64,000 nucleotides of DNA from Zetaproteobacteria bacterium (GTDB lineage Bacteria > Pseudomonadota > Zetaproteobacteria > Mariprofundales > Mariprofundaceae). The notes beneath the pieces are model-generated. The model searched no databases. It saw nothing but the letters and a program-made list of their open reading frames with translations, and was not told the origin of the DNA. The first letter of the stretch is position 1; each line of letters starts with the position of its first letter. Positions 38,920 to 52,735 of the stretch are shown here, in pieces. The stretch lies in contig JAJRTF010000109.1 in assembly GCA_021545585.1 (NCBI GenBank), positions 2,524 through 66,523 on the forward strand, written 5' to 3'. Both the position numbers and the translations under genes were made by a program.

Positions 38920-38996
38920 GTCCCCATCGTCTAGTCGGCCTAGGACACCGCCCTTTCACGGCGGCAACAGGGGTTCGAATCCCCTTGGGGACGCCA
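38920..38996 (+). tRNA. tRNA-Glu (anticodon UUC)
   Basis: The acceptor GTCCCCA pairs with TGGGGAC. The anticodon stem-loop is CCGCC-CTTTCAC-GGCGG and the T arm AGGGGTTCGAATCCCCT. CCA is encoded. Confidence 0.92.
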
Positions 38997-39004
38997 ACTG
39001 TCAA

Positions 39005-39042
39005 GGCTTCGGAAGGCTTTCTTCCGGAGCCTTTTTCCTTTT
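39005..39042 (+). terminator. intrinsic terminator after tRNA-Glu
   Basis: GGCTTCGGAAG-GCTTT-CTTCCGGAGCC (one mismatch) followed by TTTTTCCTTTT. Confidence 0.65.
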
Positions 39043-39648: not shown

Positions 39649-39740
39649 TACCCGTCTTCTGCTAATACTGCAGTTCGTATGAACTGTGGTGTGCGCGCCT
39701 TTGCGGTTGCGTACGAATCATACGCAGGAGGCACGTGCGC

Positions 39741-41120
39741 ATGCATGTTCCAGTAAAAGCCCAGTCACGGCTGGCAGTTTTAACATTTTCACTGATGCTG
39801 ATATCAGTGGCATGGAGCCCGCTCCCGGCCAGCGCTAAAGCTTCGCTATTGAGCCTGGCTGCAGCTGAACAGATAGCGATTGATCATAATCCGGCCTTGA
39901 TGGCGGCGGGCAGTCAGGCTGCGGCGATGGCGGCTGTGCCTTCGCAGGTGGGCACGCTTCCCGATCCGAAAGTGTCATTTAAGGCGCTGAATCTGCCGGT
40001 GGACTCTTTTTCGGCCACACAGGAAAACATGACTCAGTTGCAACTGGGCATTTCACAGGCCATTCCATTCCCCGGCAAACTCGGTCTGAAAGCCGAAGCC
40101 GCTGAACATATGGCTGCGGCTGCACTGGAGAACAGGCAGGAATTCCGGCTTGTACTGCTGCGCAATACCCGCATTCACTGGTGGAATCTGGCCTATCTGG
40201 ACAAGGCGCTGGAAATCATTCGCCGCAATCAGGACCTGTTGCGGAATCTGGTGAAGATTGCCGAAACGAAATACAAGACAGGCAAAGGCTTGCAGCAGGA
40301 TGTGCTGCTGGCGCAACTGGAACTGTCCAAACTGCTTGAGCGGGAACTGAATCTGGTTGCGGTACGTGCGAGCGAAGCAGCCAGGCTCAATGCGCTTTTG
40401 GGCCGTCCTGCCGCCACTGCGATTATATTGCCGCAACAAAATGCGCATGACCTGAAAGAATTGACCTATAAAAACAGCCATGACCTGGAAAGCATCCATG
40501 AGCAAACCGGGCTTCTTAAACAGTGGGCCCGGGCACATCGTCCGATGTTGCTGAGTATGGACTGGCGGATAAAAGCGAGCGATTCACGACTGGCGCTGGC
40601 AGAGAAGGATTACTATCCGGACTTCAATCTTGGTGCGGCCTACGGCTTCCGTTCGGGTGTGAATCCGGCCAATCAGCAACCGCGGGCGGATTTTGCTTCC
40701 ATTATGCTGAGCATGAGTGTGCCATTGTACGCGGGAAGCAAACAGGACAAGGCCGTGGATCAGCGCACGGCTGAAAAAGCTCAGGCTGAATTCCTGTGGG
40801 AAGATGCCGCCAATCAGGTGGATGCGGATATTGATGCTGCGGCATCAGATTTCAGGATTGCGCGCAACCAGCTCATTCTGTTCGAAAAAGGCATCCTGCC
40901 TCAGGCACGGCAGACAACAGCCTCCATGCTGGCCGGTTATCAGGTGAACAAGGTGGACTTTCTTAACCTGGTTCGCGCCCAACTCAATGAATTCAATACG
41001 GATATCCAATACTGGCTGCAGGTATCGAAGGCTCATCAGGCCGAAGCGCGCCTGGCAGCTGCCGCAGGTAAAGAAACGCTGGAACATGAAGCGAACAAGG
41101 AAGTTATCAATCATGAATAA
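39741..41120 (+). CDS. cusC: outer-membrane factor of a Cu/Ag-type RND pump (TolC family)
   Basis: 460 aa with a signal peptide and two OEP repeats (NP.L.....A........G.LPDP..). The ATG at 39741 lies 9 nt after AGGAGG. Confidence 0.8.
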   Translation: MHVPVKAQSRLAVLTFSLMLISVAWSPLPASAKASLLSLAAAEQIAIDHNPALMAAGSQAAAMAAVPSQVGTLPDPKVSFKALNLPVDSFSATQENMTQLQLGISQAIPFPGKLGLKAEAAEHMAAAALENRQEFRLVLLRNTRIHWWNLAYLDKALEIIRRNQDLLRNLVKIAETKYKTGKGLQQDVLLAQLELSKLLERELNLVAVRASEAARLNALLGRPAATAIILPQQNAHDLKELTYKNSHDLESIHEQTGLLKQWARAHRPMLLSMDWRIKASDSRLALAEKDYYPDFNLGAAYGFRSGVNPANQQPRADFASIMLSMSVPLYAGSKQDKAVDQRTAEKAQAEFLWEDAANQVDADIDAAASDFRIARNQLILFEKGILPQARQTTASMLAGYQVNKVDFLNLVRAQLNEFNTDIQYWLQVSKAHQAEARLAAAAGKETLEHEANKEVINHE

Positions 41121-42492
41121 CAAGAATATGATCATTTTAGTTGTTGCTTTGGGGCTGGGGCTGGCCGGTGGCTATGTGCTCTTTGGCTCGAAGGGTGGCG
41201 ATCAGACCGCCACATCTGCCAGAGGCGACGGTCCGTGCGCCAACGGCGCGCAGCCGCTGACATGGCGTAATCCGATGAATCCGTCGGTTACCAGCCCGAC
41301 GCCGGCGAAAGACCCGATGGGCATGGATTATGTGCCTGTCTGTGCGGAAGATGCAGCCGCAGGCGGCAATGCTCCTGCCGGTACGGTCACGATTGATCCA
41401 ACCGTTACGCAGGATATTGGTGTACGGGTGGCGAGAGCCGAGCAAAGGAATTTATCACGCGAGATCACCACGGTTGGGCGCATTACCTATGATGAAACGA
41501 AGCTGGTCACGCTGCATCCGAAAGTGGATGGCTGGGTGGATAAGCTTTTTGTCGATAAAACCGGCGAGAGCGTAAAGAAAGACACCATGTTGCTATCTTT
41601 TTATTCGCCGCAACTGGTGGCTTCCCAGGACGAGTATCTGCTGGCACTGGCCAATTGGGAGCAATTGAAAGACAGTCCCTATGTGGATATCCGCGATGGC
41701 GCCGGGCGGTTGCTGGAATCATCGCTGGATCGGTTGCGCTTTTTCGATGTGGCCGAACACCAGATCAGGAAACTGCAAAAAACGCACAAGGTACGTAAAA
41801 GCATGCATATCCATGCGCCGGCTGCCGGTGTGGTCACCAAGATCGGCGTGCGTGAAGGTGCGCATGTGTCACCCAGTTCCGAGCTTTACCAGATTGCTGA
41901 TCTGTCACGTGTCTGGGTGCTGGCGGACCTGTATGAATATGAGATTTCCTGGGTCAAAGTCGGGGATGAAGCCAGGCTGAATATCCAGTCGCTGCCCGGC
42001 CGCGATTTTACCGGCCATATCACCTATATTTATCCCTATCTGGATGCCAAGACGCGTACCAACAAGGTGCGCATCGAATTCGACAATGCCGAGGGCTTGC
42101 TCAAGCCGGATATGTTCGGTGATGTAACCATTGCTGCCTCAGTGAAAAAGCCCGGTGTATTCGTGCCCAGGGAGTCGGTGTTGATTACCGGCAAACGGGC
42201 GCATGTATTCGTTCAAACCAGACCCGGCCGTTTTGAGCCGCGCACGGTGAAAACCGGCGCCAGAAGTGATGGTCTTCTCGAGATTCTCGACGGTGTCAGG
42301 GCCGGCGAACTGGTGGTGTCCAGCGGACAGTTCCTGATTGATTCCGAATCCTCCATCCGTGAAGCGGCTGCCAAAATGGTGGCCCCCAAGCAACCTCAGC
42401 AGAGCTCCATGGATGGCATGGATATGGATGGCATGGATATGAAGGGGATGGATATGAAGGGGATGGATATGAAGGGGATGGGGCATGAGTAA
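41113..42492 (+). CDS. cusB: periplasmic adaptor (MFP) of a Cu/Ag-type RND pump with a Met-rich repeat tail
   Basis: It has an N-terminal anchor, an HlyD/CusB-like barrel-sandwich region (MHIHAPAAGVVTKIGVREG) and a C-terminal MDGMDMDGMDMKGMDMKGMDMKGMGHE tail. It overlaps cusC by 8 nt. Confidence 0.85.
   Translation: MNNKNMIILVVALGLGLAGGYVLFGSKGGDQTATSARGDGPCANGAQPLTWRNPMNPSVTSPTPAKDPMGMDYVPVCAEDAAAGGNAPAGTVTIDPTVTQDIGVRVARAEQRNLSREITTVGRITYDETKLVTLHPKVDGWVDKLFVDKTGESVKKDTMLLSFYSPQLVASQDEYLLALANWEQLKDSPYVDIRDGAGRLLESSLDRLRFFDVAEHQIRKLQKTHKVRKSMHIHAPAAGVVTKIGVREGAHVSPSSELYQIADLSRVWVLADLYEYEISWVKVGDEARLNIQSLPGRDFTGHITYIYPYLDAKTRTNKVRIEFDNAEGLLKPDMFGDVTIAASVKKPGVFVPRESVLITGKRAHVFVQTRPGRFEPRTVKTGARSDGLLEILDGVRAGELVVSSGQFLIDSESSIREAAAKMVAPKQPQQSSMDGMDMDGMDMKGMDMKGMDMKGMGHE
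42409..42483 (+). repeat. in-frame tandem repeat, (ATGGATATGAAGGGG)x3 preceded by ATGGATGGC-type units, encoding (MDG/MDMKG)n
   Basis: Read directly from the sequence. Three perfect 15-nt units lie at 42433-42477, with two related degenerate units upstream. Confidence 0.9.
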
Positions 42493-42522
42493 ATTTGCTG
42501 GTATTGCTTTCGGGGTACGCAC

Positions 42523-45500
42523 ATGATTGCAAAAATTATTGATGCGAGTCTGCGCAACAAGCTGCTGGTGCTTATCTTTACCGGCATACTGGTTGCAGCG
42601 GGAGCATTCGCAGTAAAAAATATTTCACTGGATGCCATTCCTGATTTGTCCGATGTGCAGGTGATTGTGTTCACTGATTATGCAGGTCAGGCGCCGCAGG
42701 TGGTTGAGGATCAGGTGACCTATCCGTTGACCACGGCCATGCTGGCTGTACCGCATTCCAAGGTAGTGCGCGGTTATTCGTTTTTCGGTTTTTCGGTGGT
42801 GTATATCATCTTTGAAGACGGTACGGATATGTACTGGGCGCGTTCGCGGGTGCTGGAATATCTGAACTATGTGGCCGGGCGCTTGCCTGCAGGTGTTACC
42901 CCGTCGCTGGGCCCGGATGCCACCGGTGTGGGCTGGGTATACGAATACGCACTGGTCGATAAATCGGGCAAGCATGATTTGTCCGAACTGCGTTCGATTC
43001 AGGACTGGTATATGCGCTATGCATTGCAAACGGTCAGCGGCGTATCCGAAGTTGCTTCAATGGGCGGCTTTATCAAACAGTATCAGGTTGAGGTTGATCC
43101 CAATGCCATGGCCGAATACGGCATCCCGCTGGCCAAGGTGAAGCATGCGATCAAGCGTTCGAATAACGATGTCGGCGGTCGCCTGATCGAGATGGGCGAA
43201 ACCGAGTTCATGGTGCGCGGCAAGGGCTATCTGAAAGGCATTGCCGATTTGGAGAGCATCCCTGTCGGTGTGGATCTGCACGGTACGCCGATTCTGTTGC
43301 GCGATGTGGCACATATCCATCTGGGGCCGGAGCTCAGGCGCGGGCTGGTCGAGCTGAATGGCGAGGGTGAAGTGGCTGGCGGCGTGATTATTATGCGCTT
43401 TGGCGAGAATGCATTAACCACCATTGAAGCGGTACGCGAAAAGCTGGAGGAGCTGAAAAAAGGTCTGCCGGATGGGGTGGAGATTATACCGACCTATGAT
43501 CGCGGCGATCTGATCGAGCGGGCAGTGGAAAACCTGAAAGACAAGCTGTTCGAGGAATTCATTGTCATTTCGCTGGTCTGCATGTTATTTTTGATGCATG
43601 CCCGTTCCGCCCTAGTGGCCATTGTGACCCTGCCGCTTGGTGTGCTGATCGCCTTTATGCTGATGCAGTGGCAGGGCCTGGCGGCCAATATCATGAGCCT
43701 CGGAGGTATCGCCATCACCCTTGGAGCCATGGTCGATGGTGCCATCGTGCTGATTGAGAATGCGCATAAGCATCTGGAACATGCATTGCACGACAAAGCA
43801 AAAAAACTCGGGCAGCAAATGGATGCGATCCAGTTGTCTGCCAAAGAGCGCTGGGCTGCTGTGGGACAGGCTTCACGCGAGGTCGGGCCGGCATTGTTCT
43901 TCTCGCTGCTGATTATCACCGTGTCGTATATGGCGATATTCACGCTCGAAGCGCAGGAAGGACGGCTGTTCAAGCCGCTGGCCTTTACCGCCACTTACGC
44001 GATGCTCGGCTCGGCTGTATTGGCGGTGACGCTGGTGCCGTTGCTGATGGGCTGGTTTATTCGCGGAAAGGTGATGCCGGAAGAGAAGAATCCGGTGAAT
44101 CGCGCCCTGCAATGGGCGCACGGACCGGCACTGGCCAATGCGCTGAAGCATAAATGGGTCACGTTGCTGATTGCCGTGGGCCTGCTGTTTTCCATGGCTA
44201 TTCCAATGTCGAAAATCGGTTCGGAATTTATGCCGCCGCTGGACGAAGGCGATATCCTGTATATGCCGACCACGTTCCCCGGCCTTTCGATTACCAAGGC
44301 CAAGGAACTGGTGCAGCAGACGGACCGGATCCTTAAAACCTTCCCCGAAGTGCGGTCGGTATTCGGCAAGGTGGGGCGCGCGGATTCGGCAACCGATGCA
44401 GCCCCTTTATCGATGATGGAAACGATTATTCGTCTGAAGCCTAAAGAGGAATGGCCGCAGCCGGATAAATCAACGCAGGAACTGATGCGGGAAATGGATG
44501 CGGCGATCAAGTTCCCGGGGCTTGCCAATGCCTGGACGTATCCGATCAAGACGCGCATCGACATGCTGTCAACCGGCATCAAGACGCCGATCGGCATCAA
44601 GGTATCCGGCCCGGATCTGAACGTGCTGCAGGAAGTCGGCAAATCGATTGAACAGGCGGTCAAGACTCTGTCGGAAACCACATCGGCATTCAGTGATCGC
44701 GCTGCCGGCGGTTATTATCTGGATATTGATATTCAGCGGGATCAGGCGGCGCGTTACGGCCTGACCGTGGGCGATATCGAAGATGTGATTCAATCGGCCA
44801 TTGGCGGCATGAATGTGACGCCAACCGTGGAAGGGCTGGAGCGTTATCCGGTGAACCTGCGCTATCCGCGCGATTATCGCAGCGATCCTGATGCATTGAA
44901 ACGGGTGCTGATTCCAACACCGACCGGTGCGCAGATTCCATTGATCGCCGTGGCCGAGATCAGCATCTCGCGCGGGCCACCGTCGATCAAGAGTGAAAAT
45001 GCACGCCTGAATGCCTGGATCTATGTCGATATCAGTTCCAGCGATATCGGCGGCTATGTTGCCCAGGCAAAACAGGTGATTCGTGATCAGGTGAAGATAC
45101 CGGCCGGTTATACGCTGGAGTGGTCGGGTCAGTTTGAATACATGGAGCGGGCAGCCGCGAAAATGCGCATTGTGATTCCGGCCACCCTGTTGCTGATCTT
45201 TTTACTGCTGTATTTCAATTTCGGCAGTCTGACTGCACCGGTCGTGGTGATGATGAGTGTGCCGTTTTCGCTGATCGGCGGTTTCTGGCTGGTCTGGTGG
45301 CTGGGCTTCAATCTGAGTGTGGCCGTGGCTGTCGGGTTTATTGCTCTGGCCGGTGTGGCCGCTGAAATCGGAGTGCTGGTGCTGACCTTCATTGATCAGG
45401 AAATCACGCTGCGTCGCAAGGCGATCGGTGATGGTTTTTCGGAAAAGGATCTGAGTGAAGCGGTGCAAAGCGGAGTGGCCAAACGTGTGCGTCCGATTGC

Positions 45501-45711
45501 AATGACGGCGACTGCCGTCATTGCGGGCCTGGTACCGATTATGCTAGGCGGCGGTACGGGCTCGGATGTCATGCAGCGCATCGCTGCACCAATGATCGGC
45601 GGCATGGTAACGACCACGTTGCTGTGTCTGATCGTGTTGCCGGTGATCTACGGCATGATTTTACAGCTTCAGGAAAAGCGAATAACAAACAGGAGAAAAG
45701 ATGATGAATAA
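42523..45711 (+). CDS. cusA: heavy-metal RND transporter, CusA/SilA type
   Basis: 1062 aa with 12 TM helices. GAMVDGAIVLIENAHKH and SEFMPPLDEGDILYMPT are characteristic of monovalent-cation HME-RND pumps. Confidence 0.9.
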   Translation: MIAKIIDASLRNKLLVLIFTGILVAAGAFAVKNISLDAIPDLSDVQVIVFTDYAGQAPQVVEDQVTYPLTTAMLAVPHSKVVRGYSFFGFSVVYIIFEDGTDMYWARSRVLEYLNYVAGRLPAGVTPSLGPDATGVGWVYEYALVDKSGKHDLSELRSIQDWYMRYALQTVSGVSEVASMGGFIKQYQVEVDPNAMAEYGIPLAKVKHAIKRSNNDVGGRLIEMGETEFMVRGKGYLKGIADLESIPVGVDLHGTPILLRDVAHIHLGPELRRGLVELNGEGEVAGGVIIMRFGENALTTIEAVREKLEELKKGLPDGVEIIPTYDRGDLIERAVENLKDKLFEEFIVISLVCMLFLMHARSALVAIVTLPLGVLIAFMLMQWQGLAANIMSLGGIAITLGAMVDGAIVLIENAHKHLEHALHDKAKKLGQQMDAIQLSAKERWAAVGQASREVGPALFFSLLIITVSYMAIFTLEAQEGRLFKPLAFTATYAMLGSAVLAVTLVPLLMGWFIRGKVMPEEKNPVNRALQWAHGPALANALKHKWVTLLIAVGLLFSMAIPMSKIGSEFMPPLDEGDILYMPTTFPGLSITKAKELVQQTDRILKTFPEVRSVFGKVGRADSATDAAPLSMMETIIRLKPKEEWPQPDKSTQELMREMDAAIKFPGLANAWTYPIKTRIDMLSTGIKTPIGIKVSGPDLNVLQEVGKSIEQAVKTLSETTSAFSDRAAGGYYLDIDIQRDQAARYGLTVGDIEDVIQSAIGGMNVTPTVEGLERYPVNLRYPRDYRSDPDALKRVLIPTPTGAQIPLIAVAEISISRGPPSIKSENARLNAWIYVDISSSDIGGYVAQAKQVIRDQVKIPAGYTLEWSGQFEYMERAAAKMRIVIPATLLLIFLLLYFNFGSLTAPVVVMMSVPFSLIGGFWLVWWLGFNLSVAVAVGFIALAGVAAEIGVLVLTFIDQEITLRRKAIGDGFSEKDLSEAVQSGVAKRVRPIAMTATAVIAGLVPIMLGGGTGSDVMQRIAAPMIGGMVTTTLLCLIVLPVIYGMILQLQEKRITNRRKDDE

Positions 45712-46195
45712 AATGGTTTTGCTATTAGCCGGGGCTCTGGCCTTTGGTACAAGCAAGATGGCTGTGGCGCATGGAGATATGCACGAGATGAATGCTCATG
45801 AGCACATGGACGACTCGATGCATGGGCAACATCAGGCAGGTGCGATGGCCGACATGAAGGGTTTTATGGTGAAGAAGGATATTGATGGATATACGGTCAG
45901 TTTCCATATCATGAAAGCCCCGGAAGGGCAGCCCCACGGAGGCACGCATCATTTGATGGTCAAGATTGAAAAAGACGGAAAACCTGTCGATATCATGGCG
46001 GCAAATTCAAAGTCGGCCCACCCCAACGGCCAGTCCGAATCAAAGATGATGATGAAAATGGGTAACTGGTATATGGCCAGCTATGATTTTGTCCATGCAG
46101 GACAGCATCAGGTGATGGTGTTGTTCAAGACGCAGGACGGAGCCAAGCATTTTGGTGGCATTAACTATCCCGAACAGGGCAAGGAGCAGGAATGA
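45701..46195 (+). CDS. periplasmic His/Met-rich protein of unknown family (paralog A)
   Basis: It has a signal peptide (MAVAHG). The mature N-terminus DMHEMNAHEHMDDSMHGQHQAGAMADM is His/Met-rich. The core is DGYTVSFHIM..PEG...HHLMVKIEKDGKPV...MGNWYMASY. It is coupled to cusA (11-nt overlap) and to the next gene (ATGA). Confidence 0.6.
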   Translation: MMNKMVLLLAGALAFGTSKMAVAHGDMHEMNAHEHMDDSMHGQHQAGAMADMKGFMVKKDIDGYTVSFHIMKAPEGQPHGGTHHLMVKIEKDGKPVDIMAANSKSAHPNGQSESKMMMKMGNWYMASYDFVHAGQHQVMVLFKTQDGAKHFGGINYPEQGKEQE

Positions 46196-46695
46196 TGATC
46201 AAACAGGCGAAGAAACTATTGTATATCGCTGTTGCCGGAGGAGCTGTTTTGGCGCTTGCCTCCTGTGACGGTAACCCGGCGGCTGGTACTGGCAACAGTG
46301 TGAAAGATGCCGTTGCCAGCGGTAAGGAAATCGTGATGTATAAATCCCCAACCTGCGAATGTTGTGGCAAGTGGGCCGAACATTTGCGTCAGGCCGGGTT
46401 CAGGGTGATTGAAAAGAAACGCGAGAATATGGATATCATCAAAGTAAAATATGGTGTGCCTGAGAAATTAGCCTCCTGTCATACGGCTATTGTCGATGGC
46501 TATGTCATCGAAGGACATGTGCCGGCTGCCGATGTGGAGCGGTTGTTAAAAGAACGGCTACAGGTGGCGGGCCTGACTGCTCCGGGGATGCCGATGAAGT
46601 CACCCGGAATGCAGGAAGTGGGGCAGAAACCGCAAGGTTATGATGTGCTGTCATTTGATAAAAACGGTACCTATCGGGTATTCAGTAAATATTAA
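46192..46695 (+). CDS. copG: DUF411 / CopG-family periplasmic copper-binding (lipo)protein
   Basis: Lipobox LASC, the CxCC motif (PTCECCGKW), CHTAIVDGYVIEGHVP, and a Met-rich GMPMKSPGM tail. Confidence 0.8.
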   Translation: MMIKQAKKLLYIAVAGGAVLALASCDGNPAAGTGNSVKDAVASGKEIVMYKSPTCECCGKWAEHLRQAGFRVIEKKRENMDIIKVKYGVPEKLASCHTAIVDGYVIEGHVPAADVERLLKERLQVAGLTAPGMPMKSPGMQEVGQKPQGYDVLSFDKNGTYRVFSKY

Positions 46696-46730
46696 GGCTG
46701 TGGCAGTAGTGCCTGGTAAAGGAGGCTGAA

Positions 46731-46949
46731 ATGGTGAAAGAAGTGCGGTTAAAAGTTGAAGATATGAAATGTGCAGGCTGTGAAGCCACGATTCGCAAGC
46801 GGCTGCTGACCCTGAAGGGTGTTTACGATGCCAGAGCAAATTTCAAGACCGGCGATGTGTTGTTGAATGTTAATTCAAGCTTCCAGATATCAAGGGCAGA
46901 TGAGGCTATTCGGACGCTGGGTTATACACCCGGAACCCCGGCGGACTGA
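46731..46949 (+). CDS. small cytoplasmic heavy-metal-associated (HMA) protein, CopZ-like
   Basis: 72 aa with no signal peptide and the MKCAGCEATI (MxCxxC) motif in a beta-alpha-beta-beta-alpha-beta pattern. Confidence 0.8.
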   Translation: MVKEVRLKVEDMKCAGCEATIRKRLLTLKGVYDARANFKTGDVLLNVNSSFQISRADEAIRTLGYTPGTPAD

Positions 46950-47009
46950 GTCGATATCACCTCTTGATTGACAGGAATACCGGCCGGGGCCGGGCCGAAA
47001 GGAGATGAT

Positions 47010-47477
47010 ATGAGAAAATATATTGTATGGCTGGGTGTGTTGTTCATGCTCGGGGCATGCGCAACGTTACCGGAAGGCCAGAAAAGTGAACGGCAACATG
47101 GTGCGGGCGACATTCAGGGTATGGATCATAAATCATCCTTTTTCGTAGCACGGAAGGGTGTAGCGGATGGTTATGTTTTTATCTTCCATGTTATGCCCAG
47201 TCCCGAAGGGGAGAGTTATAGCCGTACCTTTTATCATCTCATGGTCAGCGTTGAAAAAAATGGCCAGCCCATGGTGCATTTGAAACTGTATTCGGCCGTG
47301 GAGCATCCGGATGGAAGTATGGAGAAGAAAGCACTCATGATGCAGATGGGTAACTGGTATATGGCACGCTATAACCTTAGCCATGAACAGGGGCGACATT
47401 GGATTACGGTGTCATTTGATCTGGATGGAAATCACTATCCGTCCGGCATTTATTACCCGGAATGGATCGTTCGGTGA
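47010..47477 (+). CDS. periplasmic lipoprotein of unknown family (paralog B of 45701..46195)
   Basis: It has the lipobox LGAC. The core DGYVFIFHVM.SPEG...YHLMVSVEKNGQPM...MGNWYMARY...GIYYPE aligns by eye with paralog A. The ATG at 47010 follows AAAGGAG. Confidence 0.6.
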   Translation: MRKYIVWLGVLFMLGACATLPEGQKSERQHGAGDIQGMDHKSSFFVARKGVADGYVFIFHVMPSPEGESYSRTFYHLMVSVEKNGQPMVHLKLYSAVEHPDGSMEKKALMMQMGNWYMARYNLSHEQGRHWITVSFDLDGNHYPSGIYYPEWIVR

Positions 47478-47603
47478 GCAGGGCTTCGATCTGCCGCTTC
47501 CTGGCCTGCATATCTGTGCTGAAAGACATGATCAATTCGGCGACTGCACTCAGGCTCGGGGCGGATGCCCAGAGGCCTTGCCTGACGCGAAAGGAGGTTA
47601 ACC

Positions 47604-48107
47604 GTGGATGCAATGCATATAGAGGATGATGCCTGCCCGGTATGCGGGATGGATGCAGGGGGTTCGACAATTTGCGCGGAACATCTGAGTATTGAATATC
47701 ATTTTTGCACGGCACAGTGCAGGGAGAATTTCCTGGCCAGACCAAAGCTGTATACAGCCGGCCAGTCAGCCGGGGGCTCCGGCCGAAAGGTAGTCAAGCG
47801 CAGGTCTTTTACACTGGACTCTCCGGTTGATCTGGTACACCGGGAGCATCTGATCGGGGTGCTTGAACTGTTGATGGGCATTCAGCATGTGAACATTGAT
47901 CAGCGTAAGATATCGATTGATTATAATTTAATCGAGATCACAGCCAGCCAGATTGAACAGGCTCTGGAAAATGCCGGTGCGACGCTGGGTTCGGGTTGGT
48001 CTGAGCGCTTGAAACGGGGCTGGGTACATTACACCGAAGAAAATGAACTGGATCATCTGGCTGCCGGTGAGGCCGCATGTTGCAATAAACCGCCGGCAAA
48101 AGGATAA
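47604..48107 (+). CDS. YHS/TRASH domain fused to a degenerate HMA-like domain and a C-terminal CC tail
   Basis: It carries CPVCGM...YHFCTAQCRENF (YHS/TRASH). A ferredoxin-like segment (FTLDSPVDLVHREHLIGVLELLMGIQHVNID...ISIDYN...IEQALENAGA) follows, lacking the CxxC. The protein ends AACCNKPP. The GTG start follows AGGAGG. Confidence 0.6.
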   Translation: MDAMHIEDDACPVCGMDAGGSTICAEHLSIEYHFCTAQCRENFLARPKLYTAGQSAGGSGRKVVKRRSFTLDSPVDLVHREHLIGVLELLMGIQHVNIDQRKISIDYNLIEITASQIEQALENAGATLGSGWSERLKRGWVHYTEENELDHLAAGEAACCNKPPAKG

Positions 48108-48112
48108 GGTGA

Positions 48113-48811
48113 ATGACTGAAAACATAACAGAACAGGCCTCCTACCATCCTGTAACCCGCTGGTTGCATGCCGGGCTGGTGCTGGGGGTGCTCTTTCAGC
48201 TGTTCTGTGCTGCCATGATGGCTCATCCGGAGCATAAGGATGGAGGCCATGGCGGTTCGCTGCTCCTGCAGCAGGAAGCGGTTGCGGCCGAACTCCACCA
48301 TGCGGCGCATGAAGAGGATGTGTCGGGAGAGTTGTTCATGACAGCGCACCGGACAGGTGGTCTGCTGGTGGTGTTCATTGTGCTGGCAAATTTACTGTGG
48401 GCAGTCGTAGCCAGAGGCAATCCCCGTAAACGCCAGATTGCGGTGCTGTTTTCCGCCCTCCACTGGCGAGAGGCATGGGTCGTTGCCAAACAGCTTGCAC
48501 TGATACCGGTGGGGAAAGGCTCCTTTCCCGAACCGGGAAATGCGCTTTCACTTATTGTTGAAATGTTCGGTTTACTGACGATGACGGCCATGGCGATTAG
48601 CGGCTCTATTGTCTGGAACATGTGGGGAGGCCCGGGCAGCACGGTTTCCGGACAAGCTGAGGCATGGATGGGCATTCATGCGGGCATAGCTATATTGCTG
48701 TTTATGTATCTGGCCGGACATATTTCCATGGCATTGTTGCATATGCGGGCAGGCGACCGGGTTTTCGCCCGGATTGTCCCCGCTGTTTCGAGCAAAAAGA
48801 TGAGAATCTGA
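48113..48811 (+). CDS. cytochrome b561-family membrane protein (Ni_hydr_CYTB-like, 4 TM) with a His-rich loop
   Basis: Candidate heme His residues in TM1 (RWLHAG), TM2 (TAHRTGG) and TM4 (HAGIA...GHISMALLH). The TM1-TM2 loop is HPEHKDGGHGG...HHAAHEED. Confidence 0.6.
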   Translation: MTENITEQASYHPVTRWLHAGLVLGVLFQLFCAAMMAHPEHKDGGHGGSLLLQQEAVAAELHHAAHEEDVSGELFMTAHRTGGLLVVFIVLANLLWAVVARGNPRKRQIAVLFSALHWREAWVVAKQLALIPVGKGSFPEPGNALSLIVEMFGLLTMTAMAISGSIVWNMWGGPGSTVSGQAEAWMGIHAGIAILLFMYLAGHISMALLHMRAGDRVFARIVPAVSSKKMRI

Positions 48812-48869: not shown

Positions 48870-48905
48870 ACACAAGGCTGAAATAGGTGCTCGTCAGCCT
48901 TGTGT
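48870..48905 (+). other. 12-bp perfect-stem hairpin between the cytochrome b561 gene and the His-rich gene
   Basis: ACACAAGGCTGA-12 nt loop-TCAGCCTTGTGT with no U-tract. It could be an attenuator, a processing site or an RNA-stability element. Confidence 0.4.
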
Positions 48906-48944
48906 GATGGTTGAGCACATGAAATGAAGATAAGGGAGTCCGAT

Positions 48945-49271
48945 ATGAAAAAAACAGGTGCGATGGGTCTGTTGGCAGGAATCATGCTGGTGTCGATACC
49001 GGTTGTTTATGCAGAGCATAGCATGTCCGATACTCAACATCGTAAAGCGATGAGCGGTCTGCATCATCCCGAGCATGCCGATGATATGAAACATTCGGAT
49101 GGCAAGGCAACAATGTCCGATGCACAGCATCGCAAGACAATGGGTGGCATGCATCATCCGGATCGTGAGGATGAAGGCATGAAAGACAGCCATGAAGAAA
49201 AGAAGGAATCGACCATGTCTGACAGCCAGCATCGTAAGAGCATGGGTGGATTGCATCACCCCAAGGACTAG
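48945..49271 (+). CDS. secreted His-rich triple-repeat protein
   Basis: A signal peptide (VVYA/EH) is followed by three copies of MSDxQHRKxMxGxHHP, separated by acidic/His linkers. The ATG at 48945 follows AAGGGAG. Confidence 0.6.
   Translation: MKKTGAMGLLAGIMLVSIPVVYAEHSMSDTQHRKAMSGLHHPEHADDMKHSDGKATMSDAQHRKTMGGMHHPDREDEGMKDSHEEKKESTMSDSQHRKSMGGLHHPKD
49023..49262 (+). repeat. three in-frame degenerate repeats encoding MSD(T/A/S)QHRK(A/T/S)M(S/G)G(L/M)HHP
   Basis: The repeat units start at codons 27, 57 and 91 of the ORF; read directly from the sequence. Confidence 0.85.
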
Positions 49272-49370
49272 GCTAAAGCGCCCCTGACGAACCATGGCAA
49301 GCGCTGTCAGGGGCGTTCAGGCATGCCGATTTGAAAAAAGACAGGGCAGTGTTCAGCCAAGGAGACAAGT

Positions 49371-51938
49371 ATGAGTATCGATCCGGTTTGTGGAATGACA
49401 GTCAAGGCTGAGAGCGAACATGCACGATCCTTCCGCGGTGTGGATTATCATTTTTGCAGTGAACGCTGCTTAGAAAAATTCGGAGAAAATCCGGAAGATT
49501 ATCTGGGTGAGGATTGCACCCATGATCCGGTCTGCGGCATGAAGGTGTCTCGCGCCTCGGCCAATCATGTACGCCATGCCGATCACGACTATTTTTTCTG
49601 TTCGCAACATTGTGTGGAGAAATTCACCACCGATCCGGCATCTTTCGAGGGCAAGGATCAGATATGCGAGCATGGGCATCATGTGAAAAAGGTATCCGTG
49701 CCGGACAATCCCGATGCGACCTATTTCTGCCCGATGTGCCCCGGACAGGAGCAGCAGGGGCCGGGCACATGCAAGGTCTGTGGCATGGCACTGGAGCCCA
49801 TGGCGACACCGACACTGGCGCAGAAGACCGAATATGTCTGTCCGATGCATCCTGAGGTGGTCAGTGATGAGCCGGGCAGTTGTCCGAAATGCGGCATGGC
49901 GCTGGAAGCGCGCACTGTCGATGCAGACGAAGAAAACCCTGAACTGGAGGATATGAGTCGCCGTCTCAAGGTGGGTACTGTACTCGCAGCCCCCGTATTT
50001 GTGCTGGCCATGGTGGCTGATCTGGCACCATCGTGGCTGCCATCCGGCTTGAGCATGGGCATGGTACAGTGGATTGAATTCGTGTTGGCGACACCGGTGA
50101 TTCTGTGGGGTGGCTGGCCGTTTTTCGAACGTTTCTGGTTATCCGTTACAACATGGAATCTGAATATGTTTACCCTGGTCGGTCTCGGTGTCGGTGTGGC
50201 GTGGGTGTACAGCGTCGTGGCCCTGCTTGTTCCCGGTGTTTTCCCGCCTGTGATGCAGATGGACGGTGGGCTGGTGGATGTTTATTTCGAGGCTGGAGCC
50301 GTGATTACTGCACTCGTTCTGCTCGGTCAGGTACTGGAGTTGCGCGCCCGCTCCCGCACCAATGAAGCGATCAAACTGTTGCTTGGCATGGCTCCGAAAA
50401 CAGCACGGCGCGTGGCGGCGGATGGTTCGGAGGCCGATGTGCCGCTGGAGGATGTGCTTGCCGGTGATGTGCTGCGTATTCGACCGGGCGAGAAAGTGCC
50501 GGTGGACGGTGTAGTGACGGAAGGTGAGAGCAATGTCGATGAATCCATGGTCACCGGTGAACCTGTGCCGGTTGAAAAAATGGCCGGGGAGAAACTGATC
50601 GGTGCAACGGTGAACGGTAATGGTTCGTTGTTGATGCGCGCCGAGAAGGTGGGGGCCGACACCTTGCTGGCGCAGATTGTGAATATGGTGGCAGAGGCTC
50701 AGCGCTCGCGTGCACCGATTCAGAAAATGGCCGATACCGTGGCCGGTTATTTTGTACCGGTTGTGGTTGGTATTGCTGTCGCGGCGTTTGCGGTATGGAT
50801 GTTGATCGGGCCGGAACCGCGTCTGGCGCATGCCATTGTCAATGCGGTGGCGGTATTGATTATCGCCTGCCCCTGCGCTTTGGGGCTGGCTACACCGATA
50901 TCCATTATGGTGGGAACAGGTCGCGGTGCGACGGCCGGTGTGCTGATCAAAAATGCTGAGGCGCTGGAGGTGATGGAGAAGGTCAATACCGTTGTGGTGG
51001 ATAAAACCGGCACCCTGACCAAAGGCAAGCCGACGTTGACCACAGTGCTGGTAATGCATGGCATGGAAGAAAACCAGGTACTGCGTATGGCGGCCAGTCT
51101 GGAGCGCGCTAGTGAGCATCCGCTGGCTGAAGCGATTGTTGCCGGTGCCGCAGCACGGGATATCGAGCCTGAACCGGTGGAAGGGTTTGCCGCGATTACC
51201 GGTAAAGGTGTCAGTGCCCGTTTCGGCGGTAAATCGGTATTGCTGGGCAACCTGAAACTGTTGCAGGACAATGGCATTGATGCCGAAGATGTGACTCCGG
51301 TGGTTGAGGAACATCAGTTGGATGGAGAAACGGTGATGTATCTGGCTGCCGACGGGAAACTTGCCGGTCTGATCGGCGTATCCGACCCGATCAAGGCATC
51401 CACGCCCGATGCAATCCGGGAACTGCGTGATGAAGGCATCGACGTGGTGATGCTGACCGGCGATAACCATAACACGGCGGCTGCTGTGGCCGAGAAGCTG
51501 GGTATCGACCGTTTTGAGGCGGATGTATTGCCGGATCAGAAGGCGGCCGTGGTGAAAGCCTTGCAGGCGGAAGGGAAGACCGTGGCCATGGCCGGCGATG
51601 GTATCAATGATGCGCCGGCGCTGGCGCAGGCTCATGTCGGCATTGCCATGGGGACGGGTACGGATGTGGCGATGGAATCGGCCGGGGTGACGCTGATCAA
51701 GGGTGAACTGACCGGTATTGTGCGGGCTCGCAGACTTTCGCGGGCGACGATGAAAAATATCCGCCAGAATCTTTTCTTTGCCTTTATCTACAACTCGGCC
51801 GGTGTGCCGGTTGCGGCCGGGGTACTGTATCCGGTGTTTGGTTTATTGCTTTCACCGATTATTGCCGCTGCCGCGATGAGTTTTTCATCGGTTTCGGTGA
51901 TTACCAATGCGCTCAGACTGCGCCATGCGAAGCTTTGA
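49371..51938 (+). CDS. copA: Cu(I)/Ag(I)-translocating P1B-type ATPase
   Basis: CPC ([12 protein letters not shown]), [18 protein letters not shown]. The N-terminus has 2 YHS/TRASH units and 2 CxxC...CxxC units instead of HMA domains. Confidence 0.92.
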
Positions 51939-51970: not shown

Positions 51971-52735
51971 ATGATTGAAGTAACGCTGGCAGGTGCACTG
52001 ATTGCAGGACTGCTTTCTTTTCTATCACCATGCGTGTTGCCACTGGTGCCTGCCTACCTGTCGTATATTTCCGGCGTGTCGGTCAATGAGTTGCGACAGC
52101 AGGATGAACGGACGGCAGTGGTGCGGCGACATGCACTGGTTCAGGCGCTGTGGTTTGTGGCGGGGTTTAGCCTGATCTTTATTGCATTGGGGGCATCAGC
52201 CACACTGCTCGGGCAATGGATGATGGGGCATATGGAATTGCTTGGTAAAATTGCCGGAGCGATTATTGTGGTGTTCGGGTTGCACTATACCGGATTGATT
52301 CGCATCCCCCTGCTGATGATGGAAGCGCGATTCGATGCGGGCGGTGTCAATGCCAAACATGGTATGGGAGCCTTGATTCTTGGATCGGCTTTTGCGTTCG
52401 GCTGGACACCGTGCATCGGCCCGATTCTCGGCGCCATTCTGGCTGTTGCCGGCGTTCAGAGTGAAATGATGCACGGCATTATGTTGCTGCTTGTGTATTC
52501 CATGGGGCTGGCGATTCCCTTCCTGCTGGCAGCACTGGCAACAGATTCGTTCCTGCGCTGGTCACAGGATTTCAAGCGGCATTTGGCGGTGGTGGAAAAG
52601 GTGTCCGGTGTGTTGCTGATTCTGGTCGGCATACTTATTTTTCTGGGCAGTTTTAACATCGTTTCCGGATGGCTGATTGACTGGTTTCCGGCTCTCGCTG
52701 ATATCGAAGGCGCTTTTGCAGGGCTGGCGCAATAA
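51971..52735 (+). CDS. ccdA: CcdA/DsbD-family thiol-disulfide transmembrane electron transporter
   Basis: About 6 TM helices, with the conserved FLSPCVLPLVPAYLSY motif and a second Cys in WTPCIGPILG. Confidence 0.8.
   Translation: MIEVTLAGALIAGLLSFLSPCVLPLVPAYLSYISGVSVNELRQQDERTAVVRRHALVQALWFVAGFSLIFIALGASATLLGQWMMGHMELLGKIAGAIIVVFGLHYTGLIRIPLLMMEARFDAGGVNAKHGMGALILGSAFAFGWTPCIGPILGAILAVAGVQSEMMHGIMLLLVYSMGLAIPFLLAALATDSFLRWSQDFKRHLAVVEKVSGVLLILVGILIFLGSFNIVSGWLIDWFPALADIEGAFAGLAQ

Follow-up and report, generated by a model that had tools for sequence, protein, structure and literature searches.

A 64,000-nucleotide (nt) stretch of a Zetaproteobacteria bacterium (positions 2,524 to 66,523 of contig JAJRTF010000109.1, assembly GCA_021545585.1), referred to here as the window, carries a copper-efflux island in which a prokaryotic cytochrome b561 with four transmembrane helices (TM) is encoded at 48113..48811, shortly before the P1B-type ATPase gene copA. 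The cytochrome is an unusual variant of a known family (PF01292) in a known kind of island, and its TM1-TM2 loop, predicted to be periplasmic, is rich in His and acidic residues. In our judgment the chances are about even that this b561 serves CopA as an accessory that links periplasmic copper redox chemistry to quinones, and it would work beside multicopper oxidases rather than instead of them. The source organism is a marine iron-oxidising member of the Mariprofundaceae, represented by a metagenome-assembled genome (G000) of 1.75 Mb and 87% completeness, and the contig that contains the window (C99) is 69.7 kb long; numbers preceded by C, G, and L denote contigs of this genome, genomes, and loci, respectively.

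The assignment as a four-TM cytochrome, made in an initial annotation of the window, was borne out. The product matched PF01292 over the full domain (62.5 bits, cut-off 30.1; residues 11-223 on profile positions 2-178 of 179), and its AlphaFold model (predicted local distance difference test score [pLDDT] of 83.8) contains four TM helices at residues 13-36, 68-98, 144-170, and 180-212, with a TM1-TM2 loop of low confidence. The four haem-ligating His residues are kept, H19, H79, H189, and H203 being invariant in 83 orthologs, and H189 and H203 are spaced 14 residues apart in the last helix (TM4), which is the family pattern. In the same orthologs P39 never varies, conservation reaches 96% at M36 and M76, and it exceeds 90% at H12, H38, and H210. 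The protein is a bona fide di-haem-type cytochrome, with haem binding itself predicted from these ligands. The median number of Lys and Arg residues was 8 in loop 2, 3 at the C terminus, 1 in loop 1, and 0 in loop 3; because these residues are concentrated in loop 2 and the C terminus, loops 1 and 3 are predicted to face the periplasm and the N terminus the cytoplasm. The positive-inside rule, applied over the 83 orthologs, thus places the His-rich loop, whose side the initial annotation had left to a topology prediction, in the periplasm and at the same position as the periplasmic substrate-antenna loop of Escherichia coli CybB (PMC11869295).

Searches of the Protein Data Bank (PDB) with the b561, by phmmer and by profile, returned no relevant match, and a Foldseek search of the PDB with its model gave only meaningless helical-bundle matches (best E 0.37). 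An hhalign alignment of the clade with CybB, which is weak (E 0.46) and was used for local TM4 pairing only, paired H189, H203, and H210 with CybB H137, H151, and H158; the CybB sequence was that of PDB entry 5OC0, identical over all 176 residues. At the alignment's E value of 0.46, the pairing of H210 with the quinone-site residue H158 points to a possible quinone site in the b561.

The TM1-TM2 loop (residues 37-75, encoded at 48221..48337) contains 6 His in 39 residues, which corresponds to a binomial P of about 1e-3 given a genome-wide His content of 3.1%. This enrichment, which had been noticed in the window sequence, holds in the 83 orthologs, where loop 1 varies in length from 20 to 99 residues with 2 to 14 His. 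Pooled over these proteins, loop 1 consists of 16.6% His, 15.6% Asp and Glu, and 3.7% Lys and Arg, the His share of the whole b561 being 6%. The composition of the loop is kept and its sequence is not; M-x-H-P-[DE]-H and M-x-x-H(79) serve as its conserved anchors. In one b561 ortholog (P0131), loop 1 contains tandem VNSAD-like repeats, which suggests that changes in loop length may arise via replication slippage.

The neighbourhood analysis covered 18 loci taken from related genomes and 30 loci from a scan across species, two overlapping sets that amount to roughly 45 loci in all. Every b561 ortholog locus among these is a copper island, and none was found outside copper islands. In at least 18 of the about 24 long-loop loci of sufficient length, copA is located 3' of b561, where it follows directly (overlapping in L013, L015, and L020) or after a gene for a His/Met-repeat protein, sometimes also after a MerR gene. 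The gene 5' of b561 often overlaps its start. This is illustrated by a lipoprotein c-type cytochrome (PF13442) that overlaps the 5' end of b561 in five loci (L035, L037, L040, L041, and L043), a PcoA-type multicopper oxidase of 522 amino acids (aa) that overlaps the start by 11 nt in L045, CopG with an overlap of 4 nt in L055, and an overlapping upstream redoxin gene in L052 and L054. The overlap in L055 gives some support to the CopG-b561 link suggested in the initial annotation. Across these loci, b561 is an optional but copper-island-specific accessory of copA that is accompanied by periplasmic redox genes. In other relatives the start of b561 is overlapped by a gene for a 266-aa fusion of YHS/TRASH and HD_5 phosphohydrolase domains (L009:8008-8808, L031, L038, and L042), a protein that may link copper sensing to nucleotide signalling.

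The b561 clade is small and restricted. Homologs of the b561 and of the 167-aa YHS/HMA-like protein encoded next to it belong nearly all to Mariprofundus, Ghiorsea, and other Zetaproteobacteria. A scan for a clade-specific pattern in 185,579 genomes, one per species, retrieved 32 loci, all from Zetaproteobacteria except for a weak one with 28% identity in Litorisediminicola, and no locus from Acidithiobacillus. An even sample of the phylum gave weak matches in 6 of 282 genomes from genera beyond the 30 that were tallied individually. Profile searching of 1.84 billion representative proteins resulted in 214 matches at E ≤ 1e-3, ten of them at E ≤ 1e-30. The remoter relatives have mostly short loops, many with Arg, and a few possess independent His/acid-rich loops. 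In the literature searched, we found no description of this clade, the sole trace being a 'cb561' in the figure legend of an Acidithiobacillus cus cluster. The source genome also encodes a short-loop b561 paralog (C20:785-1465) that heads a second resistance-nodulation-division (RND) efflux operon and is followed by genes for a MerR regulator, a small membrane protein, and a paralog of the 317-aa outer-membrane protein encoded in the window; the position of the fourth haem ligand in this paralog is occupied by Tyr (GY, not GH).

These observations are consistent with a Zetaproteobacterial copper-efflux island assembled from interchangeable modules upstream of copA, one of which would be the b561, acting as a CybB/PF01292-type membrane cytochrome that holds two haems and is linked to the quinone pool. 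Its acidic His-rich loop, mounted on Met/His anchors, would draw copper cations and not an anion, and single electrons would pass via the b561 between the quinone pool and periplasmic copper, the latter held on the loop itself or by the His/Met-repeat protein, CopG, the c-type cytochrome, or the multicopper oxidase encoded adjacently. The Cu(I) that CopA delivers into the periplasm would be the copper acted upon. The reaction could proceed in either direction, namely, as Cu(I) oxidation without O2 or as Cu(II) reduction that makes substrate for Cus. The second can be argued because Cus pumps need Cu(I). His, Asp, and Glu ligands prefer Cu(II), which favours the first. We lean slightly toward O2-independent Cu(I) oxidation, a reaction suited to microaerophiles. 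The clade would thereby keep the electron wire of CybB and recast its substrate-collecting loop from anion-attracting to cation- or metal-binding. Copper binding by the loop, electron transfer, and all of the partners named are predicted from sequence. A more specific version is tentative and, in our view, somewhat doubtful: here the clade would act as a copper oxidoreductase that spans the membrane with haem b and directly links the quinone pool with periplasmic Cu(I)/Cu(II). The loop or the His/Met-repeat protein would be the copper-docking site, and the enzyme could take the form of an O2-independent cuprous oxidase or of a quinol-driven cupric reductase feeding CusCBA.

Several observations weigh against such a role in copper redox chemistry. 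No PDB homolog of the b561 is detectable by sequence or fold, and the alignment with CybB is weak (E 0.46). In a short-loop subgroup of the orthologs only 2-3 His remain, which means that neither fold nor core function depends on the long His-rich stretch; moreover, His-rich loops can be simple metal buffers. About 18 of the 60 or so full-length YHS-type copA orthologs in the class have a b561 gene upstream, and b561 is therefore dispensable. Furthermore, the synteny of the islands is mosaic, which makes adjacency alone weak evidence of physical partnership.

Among the alternatives, the one that fares best is unlikely. It states that the b561 is a CybB-like superoxide:quinone oxidoreductase, which would clear superoxide arising from Cu(I) autoxidation at the membrane, the loop being a side feature. 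The shared Pfam family, the aligned TM4 His pair, and the equivalent of H158 are compatible with this proposal, and a place beside copA fits a local source of reactive oxygen. However, the superoxide antenna of CybB includes R30, R35, and R38 in the very same loop (PMC11869295), and no positive periplasmic antenna of the CybB type was found in the 83 b561 orthologs, where loop 1 has a median of 1 Lys or Arg and 6 Asp or Glu and loop 3 has 0 Lys or Arg. Such a loop would repel an anion unless metal-loaded. In addition, the overlapping genes for cytochrome c, oxidase, and CopG indicate protein or metal partners.

We consider it rather unlikely that the loop, displayed on a membrane scaffold, buffers or senses periplasmic copper without any redox activity, or that the protein is an ordinary respiratory cytochrome (for example, an acceptor for the c-type cytochrome) that merely travels with the island. 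The loop is hypervariable in length and sequence, like metal-sponge proteins, the islands are mosaic and beside a tRNA gene, and b561 is optional for copA, all of which is in favour of this explanation. Against it stand the invariant haem ligands and the further invariant or nearly invariant His/Met anchors, which speak for a functioning redox core next to the loop, as well as the confinement of the clade to copper islands in the roughly 45 loci.

The initial annotation had offered another explanation, namely, that b561 and CopG carry out the periplasmic redox step between Cu(I) and Cu(II) in place of a multicopper oxidase, with the YHS/pseudo-HMA protein as cytoplasmic partner or sensor. The underlying observation is correct, since neither the window nor the rest of C99 shows a multicopper oxidase domain; the possibility that an oxidase gene lies on C99 just beyond the window was considered and rejected, as PF07732 has no match on this contig. 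Within this genome, at its 87% completeness, PF07732 was found on contig C6 only, and the island is devoid of an oxidase of the PcoA, CopA, or CueO type. A tblastn search of the same assembly with a relative's PcoA, PcoB, and 389-aa membrane protein revealed no ortholog. In many relatives (for example, L012:4682-5851 and L027:10333-11502), the last of these, a conserved protein with no Pfam match, is encoded between the PcoA-type oxidase and copA. The search of the remaining genome that the initial annotation had called for retrieved a two-domain oxidase of 353 aa on C6. It is encoded beside two cupredoxin-type proteins of 316/317 aa and two c-type cytochromes (C6:21400-27000, L001-L004), a cluster that is unrelated to the copper island.

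As a rule, replacement fails in the relatives. In at least 8 of them (G025, G032, G036 [L012], G038 [L024], G041, G049, G088, and G102), the b561 island also contains a PcoA-type oxidase, with or without PcoB (PF05275). These island oxidases have 520-573 aa and a twin-arginine translocation signal. Among genomes that are at least 90% complete, an oxidase domain was present in 9 of the 10 with b561 versus 24 of the 54 without it; relatedness inflates any test on these counts, but their direction is clear, and b561-bearing genomes are enriched rather than depleted in oxidase domains. A cultured strain, Mariprofundus micogutta ET2 (99% complete), has the order cytochrome c-b561-copA and no PF07732 oxidase domain, which indicates that life without the oxidase is possible and that replacement may still apply in single genomes; substitution is not thereby demonstrated. 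The missing island oxidase of the source genome, strain ET2, and the overlap of CopG with b561 in L055 speak for replacement, but with oxidases in the b561 island of at least 8 relatives and even overlapping b561 in L045, the enrichment just described, a two-domain oxidase in this very genome, and a YHS/HMA-like gene that is separate from b561 in about 32 genomes and adjacent to it here only, we regard it as very unlikely.

The YHS/HMA-like protein itself (47604..48107) is a predicted cytoplasmic protein of 167 aa. Its gene starts with GTG at 47604, located 6 nt 3' of AAGGAGG, and ends with TAA at 48107, leaving the 5-nt gap to the ATG of b561 at 48113 that had been noted before. The N-terminal TRASH motif (CPVC...FCTAQC, with the pattern C-x2-C ... 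C-x3-C) is conserved in 86 orthologs, and is followed by a linker, the middle domain, a long conserved helix (RLKRGWVHYTEENELDNL), and a nearly invariant CCNKPP tail. The Pfam YHS profile scored 18.7 bits, below its cut-off of 30.3, and 33.8 bits in the ortholog P0059. The middle domain adopts, in a model with a pLDDT of 84.1, the βαββαβ ferredoxin-like HMA fold and superimposes on CopZ (2qif) with a Foldseek TM-score of 0.89 and a root mean square deviation of 1.2 Å over 67 columns; it also matches many other HMA domains. The metal loop reads DSPVDLVH, with no CxxC and no conserved Cys there in the 86 orthologs, whose conserved Cys residues are confined to the TRASH motif and the C-terminal CC. 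The earlier description of a TRASH Cys motif with an HMA-like fold lacking CxxC therefore stands, with the correction that the protein does not literally end in AACC; the tail is AACCNKPPAKG. No signal peptide, export signal, or TM helix was identified in the protein, and a sequence search of the PDB found nothing.

Genes for the YHS/HMA-like protein are present in 40 of the 133 genomes of the class. They co-occur with b561 in 16-18 genomes, about 20 genomes have them but no b561, and b561 occurs alone in 12. Where both are on one contig, they are on the same strand and 0.3-5.5 kb apart, with other genes between them. The suggestion that this protein is the cytoplasmic partner of b561 did not survive, as about 32 genomes have one without the other and direct adjacency was seen here only; an obligate pair was rejected on the same two grounds. 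The usual upstream neighbour of the YHS/HMA-like gene is the gene for YtkA-like protein 2 (with 4-nt overlaps in L009-L011, L017, L019, and L021). The YHS/HMA-like gene is situated 14-106 nt upstream of copA in G101, G093, G085, G022, and G096, and elsewhere it precedes a P-II and/or a MerR regulator. P-II (GlnB-family) and MerR genes lie 3' of it in L005:10515-11261, L007:10511-12914, L030, L033, and L051. We tentatively suggest, at a likelihood well short of even, that the protein is a cytoplasmic TRASH-type Cu(I) carrier/chaperone or sensor for the copA module, because its neighbours are copA and MerR genes and the CopA of the window has YHS modules and no HMA domain. It would then serve the TRASH-type N terminus of CopA or the MerR regulator, separately from b561.

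All features of the window described here are on the + strand, and the genes form a single operon-like array in the order cusC, cusB, cusA, YtkA-like 1, copG, copZ, YtkA-like 2, YHS/HMA-like, b561, His/Met-repeat, copA, and ccdA. The upstream edge of this metal island, directly before the first gene, is marked by a tRNA-Glu(UUC) gene, detected by ARAGORN, and a strong terminator hairpin (38920..39033; 14-bp stem and T-run at 39003-39033), a setting typical for a genomic-island insertion site. The array is headed by cusC, cusB, and cusA (39735..45711), open reading frames whose orthologs in PV-1 and other loci have OEP, CusB, and ACR_tran domains and which correspond to an RND efflux system of the Cu(I)/Ag(I) type. 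A promoter scan gave sites no more numerous than in shuffled sequence. The four genes reported in the initial annotation are present at 46192-46695, 46731-46949, 47604-48107, and 48113-48811.

Between cusA and copG lies the gene for YtkA-like protein 1 (45701..46195), a periplasmic, His/Met-rich protein of 164 aa with a weak PF13115 match. Its gene overlaps cusA at the 5' end and copG at the 3' end, the latter by the ATGA at 46192-46195 that had been read from the sequence, and is kept after cusA in relatives. The CopG (DUF411) lipoprotein (46192..46695; CxCC, SCH, GHVP, and MPxxSPGM motifs) was confirmed by 89.6 bits for Pfam DUF411 and by an E value of 2.2e-28 to Pseudomonas aeruginosa CopG (6WIS), with which CxCC, SCH, GHVP, and PGMPxxSPGM are all aligned; its profile match, CxCC, SCH, Met pair, and export signal in the form of a LASC lipobox place it in the CopG/DUF411 family. 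The cytoplasmic 72-aa protein with an MxCxxC motif (46731..46949) proved to be a CopZ-type HMA chaperone (PF00403 with 47.4 bits against a cut-off of 24.8, CopZ-family NCBIfam matches, and MKCAGC). Overlooked in the initial annotation was YtkA-like protein 2 (47010..47477), a 155-aa lipoprotein with an LGAC lipobox, encoded between the HMA and YHS genes; it is a paralog of YtkA-like protein 1 (38% identity).

Downstream of b561, a secreted His/Met-repeat protein of 108 aa (48945..49271) contains three MSDxQHRKxMGGxHHP repeats and has no Pfam match; its assignment is based on sequence and synteny, and its gene is directly 3' of b561 in about 10 loci. The longest open reading frame starts at 48924, and the ATG at 48945 after AAGGGAG is the likelier start, which better fits the orthologs of 107-109 aa. 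The gene is flanked by two perfect hairpins of 12 bp (48870..48905, between b561 and this gene) and 10 bp (49279-49315), neither with a T-run, which may serve in transcript processing or attenuation between b561 and copA. CopA (49371..51938) has two YHS and two HMBD N-terminal modules according to Pfam, which detected no HMA domain in it, and synteny identifies it as the conserved partner 3' of b561. It is followed by a thiol-disulfide transporter of the CcdA/DsbD type (51971..52735; PF02683, 60 bits), a second transmembrane redox conduit within the island, and the order copA-ccdA recurs in L028 and L048.

To our knowledge, bacterial periplasmic copper redox chemistry is credited almost wholly to O2-dependent multicopper oxidases. 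These enzymes are inoperative without oxygen. If the b561 is a copper redox accessory of CopA, it would provide an oxygen-independent copper redox route beside this ATPase and account for the ability of microaerophilic iron oxidisers to withstand Cu(I); it would also represent a minimal CybB scaffold re-aimed from an anion to a metal cation through one loop change. The module is carried by the cultured strain M. micogutta ET2, and the b561 is small, which makes the idea directly testable. A 2020 review names CcoG as the sole specific bacterial cupric reductase (PMC7558416).

The closest known system is CybB of E. coli, a superoxide:ubiquinone oxidoreductase (PDB 5OC0) in which R30, R35, and R38 of the TM1-TM2 loop, together with R108 and K134, form a periplasmic superoxide antenna beside the outer haem, and H151 and H158 are located at the cytoplasmic quinone site (PMC11869295). 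The b561 shares with CybB the PF01292 family, the four-helix di-haem design, the TM4 His pair 14 residues apart, a His (H210) aligned with the quinone-site residue H158 in the weak alignment, and a periplasmic TM1-TM2 loop next to the outer haem, which is the position of the CybB substrate site. In contrast to CybB, which phmmer and profile searches did not match to the b561, the gene lies within copper islands beside copA, and its loop is 3-8 times longer, acidic, and His-rich, whereas that of CybB is short and Arg-rich. A precedent for the pairing of a b561 with a secreted partner is LcoA-BcnA of Burkholderia cenocepacia, in which a b561 gene is co-transcribed with the gene for a small secreted protein (PMC9113575), as b561 here is followed by the secreted His/Met-repeat gene. 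However, the partner BcnA is a YceI-type lipocalin, the system serves defence against lipid peroxidation, and it has no copper context.

According to PMC7558416, which cites Hausrath et al. 2020, the family of P. aeruginosa CopG (PDB 6WIS) is encoded beside copA and cusCBA and matters under anoxic conditions. The CopG of the window, with its CxCC, SCH, and Met motifs, is clearly related at the level of an ortholog, but differs in being a lipoprotein and, in some relatives, in being translationally coupled to b561; in the papers searched we found no description of a CopG-b561 linkage. For Acidithiobacillus ferrivorans, PMC7463520 draws a 'cb561' gene in a cusCBA-cusF cluster without comment. 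This resembles our case in that a b561 gene lies in a copper RND efflux cluster of an iron oxidiser, a likeness given by the figure legend only. Lastly, eukaryotic Dcytb (Cybrd1) is, as cited in PMC7558416, a transmembrane di-haem b cytochrome with an outer-face metal site that reduces Fe(III)/Cu(II). The parallel with Dcytb is one of functional analogy only, since Dcytb belongs to another, six-TM family that uses ascorbate as donor and is not a homolog. If the b561 clade is indeed a copper oxidoreductase, it would be a bacterial counterpart of Dcytb and, at the same time, a copper-directed version of CybB.

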